Positions 16,490 through 21,194 are shown, counted from the stretch's first letter. The stretch is DNA of 30,163 nucleotides from a virus (IMGVR_UViG_2850796239_000002), one strand, 5' to 3'. Program-made: numbers and translations. Notes: generated from the sequence alone by a model not told the origin.

Positions 16490-16795
16490 CAGCCTTTCTC
16501 CGCTTCCCGGACAATCAGATTCGGCTCTGCCATCAGGCGGGTGGCAACCGCAACGCTCACCGCCACATCCTCACCGATATGTGACCAGAAACGGCCACAG
16601 CGCCAGAACCCGTTTTCAGACACGGCCCTGACGTTCAGCCGGACAGGGGCGTCACCCTGTACAGCAACCGGGTCTTCAGCCGGACGTGGTTCATTCGCCT
16701 GACCGTCAGCCACAATAACGTCTGCCAGCGGTGCCGGGTTTTCCTGTGCAGCGCTGTTCTTTGCGGCTTTCGCGCCTTTGGTTTCTGCTTTTTCA
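16489..16795 (-). pseudogene. 5'-truncated phage gene (head-proximal); reading frame is open up to the IS66-family element boundary
   Basis: The frame containing 16489..16713 stays open on the minus strand through 16795 (…EKAETKGAKAAKNSAAQENPAPLADVIVADGQANEPRP…) and runs straight into the IS terminal repeat at 16796. Confidence 0.45.
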
Positions 16796-16827
16796 GTAAG
16801 CGCCCCGAGAAGTACGTAGCGTAAGGA

Positions 16828-18428
16828 TTATTTTACAGACGAGAAGTTCCAGGGCAGCAGTTCATGCACTTGGTTCGACGGCCAGTCATTGAGCTTCTCG
16901 ATCACTTCGCGCAACCAGTCCTCCGGCTCCACTTCGTTCTGTTTGCAGGTGACCAGCAGACTGTAGATGATCGCCGCACTTTCTCCTCCCTTGTCTGAGC
17001 CGAAAAAGAGATAATTTTTTCTTCCAACCGCCACCGATCGTAACGCGTTTTCACCGATGTTGTTGTCTATTTCCACCCAGCCGTCACGACAGAACTCGTT
17101 CAGCGCATTCCAGTGATTCAGGATATAGTCGAACGCCTTCGCCATCTCCGCATGTTTCGACAGCGTTTTCCTCTGCAATTGTATCCAGTCGTACAACGAC
17201 TGCATCAACTGGACGCTTCTGGCTTTTCTGACTGCAAGCCGTTCCTCTGCCGGACTGCCACGTATCTCCGCTTCTATGTCGTATAACTCTGCTATCCGTC
17301 TGAGCGCTTCCTGAGTCATTTCTGTCGGACGGCGCACATCCTCGTCATGGATTTTTCGGCGGGCGTGGGCCAGGCACCCGGCTTCCTTCACCCGGCCCGT
17401 TTCGTACAGTACGTTATAACCTGCATAGGCATCAGCCTGCAGTACGCCCTGATACTTTGCCAGGTGGAGCTGCGGATGTTCTCCTTTGCGATCTGCCGAA
17501 TACGCGAACCAGACGGCTGCCGGCAGGGATGAACCCGCATTACGATCATCCCTGACGTATACCCACAGACGACCCGTTTTCGTCTTTCCGTTCCCCGGGG
17601 CCAGTACTTTCACCGGAGTGTCATCTGCGTGCACCTTTCCTGCCTCCAGAACATAGTCATTCAGCGCTATATACAGAGGACGGAGTTTGTCTGCCATTTC
17701 TGATACCCAGCGCACCATGGTATTACGGCTCAGCTCCACGCCCTGTCGCGCGTATATTTCTGACTGGCGATATAAAGGGATATGTTCCATATATTTGCTG
17801 ACCAGGATCCGTGCAAGTAACCCTGCACTGGCATAACCGCGTTCGATCGGTTTAGGGGAAGTGGTGCCTGAACGATGACATCACACCGGCTACAGGCCAG
17901 TTTGGGACGTATGGTTTCGATAACTTTAAAGGCGGTATTAATGATATCCAGTTGCTCTGAGATTGTTTCCCCCATTTCTTTCAGAACACCTCCACAGGCC
18001 GGGCAACTGGTTTCAGCAGGCAGAAGGCGATGTGTCTCCCGGGGAAGTTCTGCCGGCAGCGGTTTTCGTGAAGATTTTCGTCCCGGGGATTCAGGCTTAC
18101 TGGCGATCGGGTTTTCTGACGGGGGACTGGTGTCAGGTGAATCTGTGACTGACGATGCATCTTCCAGAAGATTTCTGGCTGTGTTCAGCCGGTTTTCCAG
18201 TTCCGACAGTCGTTTTTCTGCCTGTCGGATCTGATTTTCAAGCTTATGACGCTTTTTCTCTGAACTCTGGCCGAACAACATACGACGCAACCTGTCGAGT
18301 TGCGCTTTCAGCCGTTCAATTTCCTGCTCATAGCCCGCGACCTGACAGGCATACTGTCGAAGCCGACTCTGTTGCTTACGCAACATGGCTTTAAGCAGCT
18401 CAATATCATCGGGGAGTTCATTGTTCAT
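16828..18428 (-). pseudogene. IS66-family transposase TnpC, split into 232-aa and 320-aa ORFs by a frameshift near 17730..17790
   Basis: Two overlapping ORFs in different frames whose combined length (~530 aa) matches IS66 TnpC; N-terminal coiled-coil plus Cys pair, C-terminal DDE-type domain. Confidence 0.65.
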
Positions 18429-18447
18429 TCCCTTGTTTTATCACGGG

Positions 18448-18795
18448 TTATATCCGGATGCCAGGCCGTTCTGTCCGTTTGGGATGTTGCCACGCGATCC
18501 CCTCCAGTAGCATGGATAACTGAGCTGGCGTCAGGTGCACTTTCCCTTCCCGGGTCACCGGCCAGACGAAGCGGCCCCGTTCCAGGCGTTTGGCGAACAG
18601 GCATAACCCGTCACGATCGGCCCACAGTATTTTCACCATTTTGCCACTGCGGCCCCGGAAGACGAAGATATGCCCGGAGAACGGGTCATCTTTCAGCGTG
18701 TTCTGCACCTTCGAAGCCAGGCCATTGAAGCCACAACGCATATCTGTGATGCCAGCGATGATCCAGATTTTGGTACCGGTCGGCAGCGTTATCAT
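18448..18795 (-). CDS. IS66-family TnpB (orf2)
   Basis: 115-aa ORF MITLPTGTKIWIIAGITDMRCGFNGLA... typical of IS66 orf2; its ATG overlaps the upstream tnpA stop (ATGA). Confidence 0.75.
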   Translation of the reverse strand: MITLPTGTKIWIIAGITDMRCGFNGLASKVQNTLKDDPFSGHIFVFRGRSGKMVKILWADRDGLCLFAKRLERGRFVWPVTREGKVHLTPAQLSMLLEGIAWQHPKRTERPGIRI

Positions 18796-18924
18796 CGGAT
18801 ACCCCCTTTCATTTCGCGGATTAGCGCCCGTAACAGTTCCGGAGTGAGAGGGTCAAACAGTTTTACCACACCTGATTTAAGATGCAGCTCGCACCGTGGG
18901 ACGTTTCCGGGAGCCCCCTCAGGG

Positions 18925-20224
18925 CTGAGGAATCCCCAGAAAACGAGACAGACATAGCATTATGTGATCTACTGATTTGTGCCAACAATTCAATGAGATC
19001 ACTGCTATGCCTGTTCATAAAGTATGTCAGAATTTCTTCCGGGATGCCTTAGCACCATTTCATCAGTACCGACAAAATGCCCTGATGGATGCCACAGTGG
19101 CGTTAATCAACGGAGCATCTCTGACGCTGACCAGTATCGGACGTTTTTTGCCGGGTAATGCACAAGTTAAGAATAAGATCAAACGTATTGATCGCCTCAT
19201 GGGTAATGAGGCGCTCCATCGCGATATTCCAATGATTTTCAGGAATATCACTTCAATGCTGACACGGCAGTTATCTTTATGTGTAATAGCCGTAGACTGG
19301 AGTGGCTATCCCTCCCAGGAGCATCATGTTCTTCGTGCCAGCCTTCTGTGTGACGGGCGTTCCATTCCGTTATTGAGTAAGGTTGTTCCTTCTGAAAAAC
19401 AAAATAATCCATTGATACAACATGATTTCCTTGATTCCCTTGCTCAATCCCTGCCCCCGATGCCAGGGTTATTATTGTCACGGATGCTGGATTTCAGAGC
19501 GCATGGTTTCACCATATTACTTCTCTGGGCTGGGATTTTATTGGTCGGATCAGAAATAACGTTCAGTATTGCCTCGATAACGCGCCTGAAAGATGGTTAA
19601 AAGTGTCGGATAGCCCTGAATGTAAAACACCGGAATATATGGGGGCTGGAAGGCTGGTTAAAGAAAGGAAAAAAAGCATCCGGGGGCATTTTTACACCTA
19701 TAAGAAATCGGCAAAAGGGCGAAAAAAGAAACGTTCGAAAGGTCAGAGTGGTTTAAACAAAACAGACAAAGAACAGAGCAAATCAGCAAAAGAAGCCTGG
19801 TTGATCTTCAGCAGTACAAATGACTTCAGAGCGCGAGAAATCATCAAGTTATACAGTCGGCGAATGCAGATTGAGCAAAACTTTCGTGATGAAAAGAACG
19901 GGCGCTTCGGATTTGGTCTTCGGGCCAGCAAAAGTCGTTCAACAGGAAGAATTCTGGTTCTGAGTCTGCTGGCAACGTTGAGCACTATCGTAATGTGGTT
20001 ACTCGGTTATCACGCTGAAAATAAAGGGTTACACCTGAAATATCAGGCTAACAGCATTAAATCCCGGCGGGTTATCTCATATCTGACGTTAGCGAAGAAT
20101 GTTCTTCGACACTCGCCACTTATTTTAAGACGAACAGTACTGAGCACAGTTCTAAACCATCTGTCCAGAACCTACCGAAATATGGTGCTGGTTTATTAGC
20201 AGTAATTTTGTGGGGATCCCTCAG
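18925..20224 (+). mobile_element. IS4-family IS10-like element, copy 1 (1300 bp), perfect 9-bp target duplication CCCTCAGGG (18916..18924 and 20225..20233)
   Basis: Ends CTGAGGAATCCCCAGAAAAC... and rc CTGAGGGATCCCCACAAAAT..., similar to IS10 termini; transposase resembles IS10 Tnp; 9-bp duplication as for IS10. Confidence 0.8.
18977..20199 (+). pseudogene. IS10-like transposase, frameshifted (C5 run at 19454..19458 vs G6 in copy 2)
   Basis: ORFs 18977..19600 and 19603..20199 together equal the intact 407-aa copy-2 protein except for a 1-bp difference in a homopolymer. Confidence 0.7.
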
Positions 20225-20828
20225 CCCTCAGGGCGCTCATCATGCTTGTTACGCCAGAAGGGATTTGTAACTGGTCTGGTCGGCTCCGGCGTATCAGTCA
20301 GTGCCACCGGGACAGGCATGCATTCCTGTATGTCATCATCGCTCAGTAAGCCGTCCTCGTACTGGCTTTTCCATTTAAACAGCAGGTTATTATTGATATC
20401 GTGTTCTCTGGCGATCCGGGCAACAACAGCCCCAGGCTGTAACGCCTGCTTAGCCAGACGGACCTTAAATTCACGGCTATAGCTGGTTCGCCGTTCTTTT
20501 CGCCATGAGCCTTCTCTGATTTGAGGCTCTGTTAATTCCTTCTTTCTGTTGGCATAAAGGATGGCGTCAAGTTGAGCGAATGAAACTGAATCGGGCAATG
20601 GCCATGCGATACCGGATGCAAGAAATCGCTGAAAAAGCGTATGTATTGTGGAATGACTGAGACCCAGACGCTGAGCGATGGCCCGGATGGTCAGTTTATC
20701 TTCAAATCTTAAACGCAGGGCATCAGGCAAATAAGAACGGAAGCAGGGAATATCTTTTGTTGTCTGGGAATTCATCGTTCGTGTCCATCAATATAGATGG
20801 ACGCGATTGTTGCCAGACAGGACAATTT

Positions 20829-21194
20829 TCACAAGACGTCGCTGATGGGGCGCTTACTTCTCACGGAGGCCCCTGAAAGCGGCGCATCAATTTCCAGTAG
20901 TACGTTGATATGAAAATCAGGGGGCAGCAGAAACAATTGCGGTCTGATATCAATAAAAAGGCGGGAAATAATTTCGGATAAACGCCCGGTAACCGGTTTA
21001 TTGGTTAATACGGGAATGACACTGCGACGCACAGTATCTTCTCCGCGCAAATCAGCGTAAGTATTCAACACCTGCTGACGCGCCAGAAATGCTGTTGTAG
21101 TTTCTGCAACGGAATCACCATTCAGCGCGGTTTGTACGGAAAAACTAAGTATCTGCAACGCCCGTCGTCCCCGTCGCGTTTCCTGCAAAATCAC
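20829..21194 (-). CDS. Hypothetical protein, 3' end replaced by IS66-family sequence (truncated at 20857)
   Basis: 121-aa minus-strand ORF whose last ~9 codons lie inside the IS terminal repeat; normal-GC region adjacent to the AT-rich cargo. Confidence 0.3.
   Translation of the reverse strand: MILQETRRGRRALQILSFSVQTALNGDSVAETTTAFLARQQVLNTYADLRGEDTVRRSVIPVLTNKPVTGRLSEIISRLFIDIRPQLFLLPPDFHINVLLEIDAPLSGASVRSKRPISDVL

Follow-up and report, generated by a model that had tools for sequence, protein, structure and literature searches.

A Mu-like prophage remnant that stops at an IS66-family element without a target duplication, next to genes of a T6SS cluster, raises the question of whether the IS joins two distant loci or closes a gap within the prophage itself. 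The window, i.e. the whole stretch of DNA analysed (30,163 nucleotides; CP026875.1:1769137-1799299, 100% identical to L015 and L019), was first read in the former sense: a preliminary description proposed that an IS-mediated event had removed the head and early region, cut a neighbouring gene and joined the remnant to an unrelated vgrG island. The data presented here rather suggest, with a probability of about 0.85, that a Mu-like phage entered a T6SS gene and that an ISSfl3-associated internal deletion then gutted the phage. The features concerned are the following.

1..16795, minus strand: Mu-like prophage remnant, recognized by identity to the VL40 and FDAARGOS_943 prophages and by Pfam Mu families
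13569..14832, plus strand: IS600 (IS3 family) in a Mu tail-region gene, with a 3-bp duplication (GAG) and 100% identity to annotated IS600
16489..16795, minus strand: 103-aa phage gene, 5'-truncated, aligned to the VL40 CDS (L034 25919-26230)
16796..20857, minus strand: ISSfl3 (IS66 family), 2753 bp without its passenger, 8-bp target duplication absent
16828..18428, minus strand: tnpC (DDE transposase; ORFs and Pfam), split into 232-aa and 320-aa frames
18448..18795, minus strand: tnpB (IS66 Orf2-like; ORF and Pfam), intact, 115 aa
18792..20775, minus strand: tnpA, interrupted by ISSfl1 after about codon 181 (224 aa in intact copies)
18925..20224, plus strand: ISSfl1 (IS4 family, IS10-like), 1300 bp, nested in ISSfl3 tnpA, identified by the RefSeq annotation of matching DNA and by its inverted repeats, with the ends read
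20858..21470, minus strand: N-terminal 613 nt of a 404-aa T6SS-cluster gene, aligned to E. coli 536 (L003 8399-9613)

The prophage remnant and the ISSfl3 copy at its end

The remnant carries mom (cut by the window edge), com, genes for the tail fibre, baseplate, tape measure, tube and sheath, a gp36-like gene and the 5'-truncated 103-aa gene. The families Gp36, Phage_tail_S, sheath, tube, Gp41, DNA_circ_N, Gp45, GP46, Baseplate_J, Gp48, Com and Mom follow one another in the late gene order of Mu; the 404-aa, 308-aa, 262-aa and 103-aa proteins had no match in NCBIfam or Pfam. The tail region (1-13568) is about 98% identical to the prophages of VL40 and FDAARGOS_943 over 84–86% of its length, and IS600, which follows it, is missing from the equivalent site in L008 and L011. 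The segment 15250-16795 is 99.8% identical to the intact prophage of E. coli VL40, and the homology ends exactly at 16795, so that the IS does mark the truncation of the prophage, as had been proposed. The head-proximal ORF said to run open into the IS is the 103-aa gene, which in intact VL40 lies directly downstream of the major head gene gpT. In the window, this gene lacks its first 5 nt (the start codon and 2 nt; the break corresponds to L034 25924) and its frame is open into the IS end. The genes encoding transposase A, ATPase B and the repressor, present in intact relatives, are deleted from this copy.

The right terminus of the phage, TAAAGCGCGC, was defined from three independent insertions and lies about 125 bp to the left of window position 1. 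Both phage termini are conserved (TATG(A/G)... and ...GCGCGCTTTA). Phages of this type are found at unrelated sites, namely cus/vgrG (VL40), sslE (FDAARGOS_943), mobB (L018) and the T6SS gene of the window locus. The termini can be summarized as TA...TA, and three independent insertions are flanked by a repeat of 4 bp (TTCT, TTCA and TGTT), whereas Mu duplicates 5 bp; this argues against a strict Mu-type spacing but not against the biology of a transposable phage.

The element adjoining the remnant had been described simply as an IS66-family element. Its family assignment holds, but it is a composite of 4062 bp, made up of ISSfl3 (2753 bp) and the nested ISSfl1. ISSfl3 opens with GTAAGCGCCCC at 16796 and closes with GGGGCGCTTAC at 20857; its terminal inverted repeats, which start with GTAAGCG, match over 11 of 11 nt in inverted orientation, and nine other copies have identical termini. 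It shows the tnpA-tnpB-tnpC order of the IS66 family, and its four reading frames match DDE_Tnp_IS66, DDE_Tnp_IS66_C, zf-IS66, LZ_Tnp_IS66, TnpB_IS66 and HTH_Tnp_1 (Pfam E-values from 1e-94 to 1e-12). DNA with 99.5–99.8% identity in complete E. coli genomes carries the RefSeq annotation ISSfl3; IS679 and ISEc8 are relatives. Relative to L018, whose copy is intact (2754 bp), tnpC has lost 1 nt near 17854 and is thereby split. The part of tnpA left as a 184-aa ORF (20221-20775) bears the domains HTH_23 and HTH_Tnp_1, while a 224-aa product is called in relatives devoid of the ISSfl1 insertion. As tnpC is frameshifted and tnpA is split, the window copy, unlike an intact ISSfl3, is defective and unable to move alone. 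The nested ISSfl1 is itself bounded by inverted repeats (CTGAGGAATCCCC and GGGGATCCCTCAG) and by a 9-bp duplication, CCCTCAGGG (18916-18924 and 20225-20233). It also has the DDE_Tnp_1 domain of the IS4 family, which matches the second of the two frames (207 aa and 198 aa) into which its transposase is broken. Its insertion site is unoccupied in L008, L011 and L030.

The 8-bp flanks of the window ISSfl3 are unlike (CTTTTTCA at 16788-16795 versus TTCTCACG at 20858-20865), as previously noted, and a matching duplication was still not found after exact mapping of the ends. Two sibling copies, in L018 (from the same genome) and L044, served as positive controls and show perfect 8-bp duplications (GCTTCGGC and GGTCAACA). 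The ends of the window copy are therefore correctly mapped, and the missing duplication reflects a rearrangement rather than misplaced ends.

A T6SS gene split by the prophage

The gene to the right of the IS, initially described as a 121-aa gene unrelated to the left flank, belongs to a 404-aa gene of the T6SS cluster, which runs in the window from 21470 down to 20858 and carries a nonsense codon (W86*) at 21213-21215. The C-terminal half of this gene (205 aa) lies just past the Mom end of the prophage, about 125 bp to the left of the window, and is followed by tssM-tssA-PAAR-tssF, collinear with E. coli 536. The N part comprises nt 1-613 of the gene and the C part nt 610-1215 (in L019). The two halves have the same orientation and overlap by exactly 4 nt, TTCT, whose IS-side copy is at 20858-20861. 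The junction reads CAGATAGTTCT followed by TAAAGCGCGC on the Mom side and GCGCTTAC followed by TTCTCACGG on the IS side, for an uninterrupted host sequence CAGATAGTTCTCACGG. As the overlap is the 4-nt target duplication of the phage, the phage had integrated into the 404-aa gene; the gene was thus cut earlier, by this integration, and not by the event that left the IS at the joint. The right flank of the IS is therefore the host DNA to which the left end of the prophage was formerly attached.

To the left and to the right of the prophage, the T6SS cluster follows the gene order of the metV-linked cluster of E. coli 536 (tssF-PAAR-tssA-tssM-[404-aa gene]-306/308-aa-262-aa-vgrG), and no host nucleotide is missing. 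The vgrG island is therefore not an unrelated locus to which the remnant was joined. By comparison with E. coli 536, the cluster of the window genome is decayed: besides the nonsense codon and the prophage in the 404-aa gene, its vgrG is split and it carries a further ISSfl1 copy.

Extent of the deletion and its probable history

The DNA missing from the remnant corresponds to L034 7205-25923 of the intact VL40 prophage, i.e. 18,719 of 34,619 bp. The loss of head and early genes through an IS-associated deletion is thus borne out: the missing genes include those for the repressor, transposase A/B, kil/gam, Mor/C, lysis, the terminase, the portal, the protease and the capsid. Up to the joint, the phage side matches VL40 in order, and the host side is collinear with E. 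coli 536 starting from the target repeat of the phage. The loss was thus restricted to phage DNA (about 18.7 kb, between the left terminus and the 103-aa gene), and host DNA was left complete.

A relative of the source genome, CP026836.1, is listed as S. boydii (PMC12817139). Related Shigella genomes show an intermediate form. In L029 and L033, a 209-bp phage left end (TATGACTAGG...) lies between the same host nucleotide and the tnpA end of ISSfl3; L024 and L027 carry the same 209 bp plus extra IS insertions, and share the identical CTTTTTCA/ISSfl3 joint. The loci of the relatives with this left end stop short of the Mom-side junction. In the window lineage, the 209-bp stub is gone and the tnpA-side terminus of the IS abuts the host copy of the target repeat to the nucleotide. 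L011 keeps the phage/IS joint with ygcG-eno-pyrG-mazG-relA on its far side, while L029 keeps the host/left-end/IS joint with a different far side; a 44-bp internal deletion is common to L011, L029 and L027. Neither junction occurs in any of the 5,426 complete E. coli genomes searched, and the junction is confined to Shigella-type assemblies reached through exact-protein look-ups. Look-ups with the 74-aa, 85-aa, 119-aa, gp36, gp45 and gp48 products brought up no intact prophage at the T6SS site and no ISSfl3 showing an 8-bp duplication at one or other of the joints; whatever they yielded was either a deleted form or the 209-bp intermediate.

Each of the two deletion joints coincides exactly with an IS terminus, an 8-bp duplication is missing, and we infer that the IS made the deletions. 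The order of steps, also inferred, may be viewed as follows. A Mu-like phage would have integrated into the 404-aa gene of the metV-linked T6SS cluster in a Shigella ancestor, leaving the TTCT repeat. An ISSfl3-associated deletion would then have removed the interval from near the left end of the phage to 5 nt inside the 103-aa gene. The window lineage would also have lost the 209-bp left-end stub, bringing the IS terminus to the host target repeat. The insertion of ISSfl1 into tnpA, the frameshift in tnpC and the insertion of IS600 into the tail gene would represent later decay. A microhomology-mediated loss of the stub was considered and rejected, as the junction sequence fits no short repeat.

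The deletions could have been made either by a one-ended attack of the IS on a nearby target (adjacent deletion) or by recombination of two directly oriented ISSfl3. Adjacent deletion is slightly favoured; its achievement by a single IS66-family copy is an assumption, as the transposition chemistry of these elements is, to our knowledge, poorly characterized. The alternative, which differs only in mechanism, is possible but rather doubtful: one ISSfl3 would have inserted at the 103-aa gene (duplication CTTTTTCA) and another at or near the left end of the phage, and homologous recombination of these direct repeats would have released the interval as a circle, with a single hybrid copy remaining. 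ISSfl3 copies clearly serve as recombination substrates in relatives, as illustrated by the flank exchanges of L011 and L029, and in the case of Shigella the usual explanation invokes homologous IS copies that recombine with each other (PMC7373316). For this scenario, however, the 8-bp target of a second ISSfl3 must have begun at the very nucleotide of the phage/host boundary in the window type, or 209 bp within the left end in the relatives; the look-ups revealed no genome in which two copies flank the interval, and the window copy has three private differences relative to other copies but otherwise no mosaic pattern. L018, where A and B' lie next to ISSfl3, does show early genes elsewhere in the assembly, but on a separate remnant. 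Its ISSfl3 is flanked by a perfect duplication and the remnant ends at mobB with a right terminus of its own, so that L018 was rejected as the reciprocal partner.

That the IS terminus meets the phage/host boundary to the nucleotide would be rare for a random endpoint, and the proposed history gives no account of it. It is improbable that this placement has a mechanistic cause, whereby either a Mu-type transposase supplied by a sibling prophage had bound, distorted or nicked the junction of phage end and host, which an ISSfl3 end then attacked, or selection destroyed the left end of a remnant that, with both ends intact, would be a mobilizable mini-Mu. The exactness of the joint would fit, as would the existence of sibling Mu-like prophages, in this genome or in related ones, of which some encode a transposase (L018, L007). 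In two relatives, other IS also independently interrupt the extreme left terminus, one at nt 8 and one at nt 10, but these insertions are explained by the CTAG tetranucleotide found there, which is the known preferred target of IS630-type elements. Both lie on CTAG, with duplications TA and CTAGG (5 bp, CTAG-centred), so that the left terminus was rejected as a general IS hot spot. Furthermore, selection for immobilization would accept any endpoint past the boundary, leaving the exactness unaccounted for; no interaction between IS66 and Mu transposases is known, and the observation is single and was noticed after the fact. If the exactness were not due to chance, it would mean that an IS66-family transposase prefers phage-end/host junctions or that orphan mini-Mu ends are selected for destruction.

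A long-range inter-IS recombination or deletion that fused the remnant to an unlinked vgrG island and cut its neighbour gene is very improbable: the flanks do differ, the gene adjacent to the IS is truncated and relatives L011 and L029 show comparable flank exchanges, but both halves of the cut gene flank the remnant in the same orientation with the phage target repeat, in a collinear cluster devoid of host loss. Finally, although the region is dense in repeated IS (ISSfl3, ISSfl1 and IS600), an assembly artefact from collapsed or mis-joined repeats is scarcely credible, as the sequence comes from a chromosome record of 5.16 Mb in a single contig, the host/IS junction is also present in GCA_000193915.2, independent short-read contigs run from the host gene into the IS end and the phage/IS joint occurs in at least four other complete genomes.

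Relation to known elements and to prophage decay in Shigella

The phage of the window is only distantly related at the DNA level to the named phages Mu, D108 and SfMu, the match being limited to com-mom (about 87%). Defective Mu prophages and mini-Mu derivatives belong to classical Mu genetics. Like a defective Mu prophage, the window remnant is reduced to the tail module, without transposase, repressor and head genes, while the relatives that keep the 209-bp left end and an intact right end share the layout of a mini-Mu.

The map of the region is thus corrected: the IS did not bring the vgrG/T6SS island and the prophage remnant together from distant loci; rather, one T6SS gene was split by a Mu-like phage, which was then gutted from within by an IS. 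The related genomes form a stepwise series, from the left-end stub to its absence and to flank exchange. The ISSfl3 deletion reveals no new kind of element or mechanism. It is ordinary IS-driven prophage decay and a further documented case in which IS turn Shigella prophages into inert remnants while host gene order is kept; other Shigella and E. coli genomes provide further examples of internal deletions associated with an IS in this prophage family.

IS-mediated deletion is a recognized feature of Shigella genomes (PMC7373316). The window locus resembles the deletions described there in having an IS at the gene-removing joint and, in relatives, flank exchanges between copies of the same IS, although ISSfl3 is not among the five common Shigella IS listed (PMC7373316). 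It differs from them in that the loss is confined to the prophage and stops at the prophage's own end, all host genes being retained.

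The ISSfl3 element and its flanks

The IS66-family element located at the end of the phage sequence corresponds to ISSfl3, the annotation carried by DNA matching at 99.5–99.8% in complete E. coli genomes. It is a composite of 4062 bp, whose tnpA gene houses the IS4-family element ISSfl1, and the IS66-family domains are all present across its reading frames.

Features of the ISSfl3 element (window positions; ends read from the sequence, domains from Pfam)
16796-20857: ISSfl3 with its passenger, 4062 bp, from GTAAGCGCCCC... to ...GGGGCGCTTAC
16828-17790: DDE_Tnp_IS66 and DDE_Tnp_IS66_C
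17730-18428: LZ_Tnp_IS66 and zf-IS66
18448-18795: TnpB_IS66
18925-20224: nested ISSfl1 (IS4 family), 1300 bp, in tnpA, 9-bp duplication CCCTCAGGG
20221-20775: HTH_23 and HTH_Tnp_1

The site of the nested ISSfl1, whose transposase is split, is empty in relatives. Without this passenger, ISSfl3 measures 2753 bp; compared with an intact 2754-bp copy of the same chromosome, it lacks one base near 17854 and has two substitutions. As this deletion splits tnpC and as tnpA carries ISSfl1, the element is a dead copy.

The 8-bp sequences beside ISSfl3, CTTTTTCA on the left and TTCTCACG on the right, do not match, as already noticed in the preliminary description. The terminal 11 nt are identical at the start and end of nine other copies, and perfect 8-bp repeats flank two sibling copies (GCTTCGGC in L018, a locus of the same chromosome, and GGTCAACA in the locus L044). 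Therefore, the ends are correctly mapped and the lack of duplication is real.

A Mu-like prophage within a T6SS gene

The region 15250-16795 is 99.8% identical to the intact Mu-like prophage of E. coli VL40 (locus L034), and homology ends exactly at 16795, which is 5 nt into a 103-aa CDS immediately after the major head gene gpT. This gene lacks its start codon and two further bases and its frame runs open into the IS, in agreement with the abrupt truncation first described. The genes missing upstream encode capsid, protease, head morphogenesis, portal and terminase, then lysis, Mor/C, gam, kil, B, A and repressor functions. The loss of the head and early region, previously proposed, is thus established by comparison with VL40 as that of L034 7205-25923, i.e. 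18,719 of 34,619 bp.

From 20858 onward, the sequence corresponds to the metV-linked T6SS cluster of E. coli 536. The "121-aa gene" adjacent to the IS belongs to the 5'-terminal 613 nt of a 404-aa gene located between tssM and the vgrG-associated genes; this 5' part shows as an 85-aa and a 121-aa ORF because codon 86 is changed from TGG to TAG. The window corresponds to CP026875.1:1769137-1799299 (two fetched loci, L015 and L019, are 100% identical), and this chromosome was read 9 kb past the left edge of the window to find the phage right terminus and its neighbours. The terminus lies about 125 bp outside this edge, directly after mom. Beyond it, the remaining half of the 404-aa gene (nt 610-1215) is followed by tssM, tssA, a PAAR gene and tssF, in an order collinear with E. 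coli 536. The two halves share exactly 4 nt.

Junctions of the prophage with the 404-aa gene
Uninterrupted host at the insertion site: CAGATAGTTCTCACGG
Mom-side junction: CAGATAGTTCT / TAAAGCGCGC
IS-side junction (IS end, then host): GCGCTTAC / TTCTCACGG

As the gene halves flank the prophage with a 4-nt overlap, and as 4-bp repeats also flank the same phage type at two other, unrelated sites, the Mu-like phage integrated into the 404-aa T6SS gene. The DNA to the right of ISSfl3 is the former left attachment flank of the phage itself, and the event is an internal prophage deletion, in which no host base was lost and nothing unrelated joined. While the observation of a truncation at an IS lacking duplication is confirmed, its interpretation is only partly supported: the remnant was not joined to an unrelated vgrG island, and the right-flank gene, although truncated at the IS, was cut by phage integration, its other half lying beyond mom.

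Related loci and the route of deletion

Look-ups with proteins encoded in the window led to several complete chromosomes of Shigella, including CP026836.1, listed as S. boydii (PMC12817139). The joint between CTTTTTCA and ISSfl3 is identical in two of their loci, L024 (the same as L008, fetched twice) and L027, where 209 bp starting with TATGACTAGGTAATTTATTCAAGATA separate the second ISSfl3 end from the host gene. Over its first 76 nt, this stub has 89% identity with the left end of the prophage in VL40, and the latter opens with the same terminal sequence (TATGACTAGG...) where it meets its own host DNA. Since the stub meets the host at the same nucleotide as the window joint does, both types of genomes would descend from one phage integration. 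The stub-less type was found in CP026875.1, GCA_000193915.2 and a few short-read assemblies.

The stub is uninterrupted in two other Shigella loci, L029 and L033. Its extreme left end is interrupted independently in L024 (10614-11966) and L027 (10614-11740), both times on the same CTAG tetranucleotide: in one case by an IS630-family element, inserted at nt 8 with a TA duplication, and in the other by a different IS (about 913 bp), inserted at nt 10 with a CTAGG duplication.

A 44-bp internal deletion in ISSfl3 is common to L027 (11741-14450), L029 (10823-13532) and the related locus L011 (6988-9694), yet one or other flank differs among them: L011 retains the phage/IS joint and carries ygcG-eno-pyrG-mazG-relA on the opposite side, whereas L029 retains the host/stub/IS joint with a different far side. 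Therefore, this ISSfl3 copy later acted as a recombination substrate with flank exchange. In another group of Shigella genomes (L025, L028, L030 and L031, about 10542-13295), ISSfl3 is inverted, lacks a duplication and lies a further 72 bp into the same T6SS gene (equivalent to window 20930), where it is fused to IS600 and a tail-fibre remnant near smpB.

Both deletion joints are located exactly at ISSfl3 termini and the outer flanks are collinear with undeleted references. Together with the absent duplication and the stub intermediate, these data suggest that the IS caused the deletions, as first proposed, albeit inside the prophage. Either an IS end would have attacked a nearby target, producing an adjacent deletion, or homologous recombination would have occurred between two direct ISSfl3 copies. 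Adjacent deletion is slightly favoured because the phage-side joint is constant, the tnpA-side joint varies by lineage and no ancestor with ISSfl3 on both sides of the interval was found among the fetched genomes. The window type might derive from the 209-bp type through a second short deletion; alternatively, both might derive independently from an ancestor carrying ISSfl3 in the 103-aa gene.

In the window lineage, the ISSfl3 terminus coincides with the phage/host boundary with single-nucleotide precision, where a random endpoint would fall perhaps once per thousand or more. The match is probably fortuitous, having been spotted only afterwards, and a genuine targeting effect has a small probability. 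For a mini-Mu-like remnant, selection for immobility would be served equally by many endpoints, and the junction sequence does not account for such exactness by microhomology.

Other elements of the window and relation to Mu

IS600 (13569-14832), 100% identical to annotated copies, lies in a Mu tail-region gene with a 3-bp duplication (GAG), at a site empty in related genomes. The baseplate J (gp47-like) gene (4916-5991) is disrupted (254 aa vs 358 aa in relatives). In the vgrG island, a second ISSfl1 (26864-28164) encodes an intact 407-aa transposase and is flanked by a near-perfect 9-bp repeat (GCGCAGGGT / GCGCAGGGG). vgrG (23505-25693) is broken into frames of 495 and 193 aa; downstream, a very low GC stretch (about 31%; 21725-23512) carries two ORFs, one of 262 aa with an HExxH motif (HELTH) and one of 308 aa without family match, which look like a candidate T6SS effector and its partner.

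The same chromosome harbours, beside mobB...polA, a second Mu-like remnant (L018; CP026875.1:836385-857005), in which genes A and B' are linked to a baseplate/tail-fibre/Mom part through an IS3-family element, within which lies the intact ISSfl3 flanked by GCTTCGGC. Members of this prophage family in other fetched loci also have internal deletions associated with IS. Taken as a whole, the feature is a routine case of prophage decay through IS activity in a Shigella genome rich in IS (for this context, see PMC7373316), with nothing new in kind.

The termini of this phage family read TA...TA (TATGACTAGG... / ...GCGCGCTTTA), and 4-bp, not 5-bp, direct repeats flank it at three independent insertions (TTCT, TTCA and TGTT; read at L019 11690-11710, L034 7190-7215 and 41815-41830, and, in the locus L005, 5810-5825 and about 40205-40215). 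The gene order and protein families of the prophage are Mu-type and Mu-specific, whereas the DNA match of Mu, D108 and SfMu to it is limited to com-mom (about 87%).
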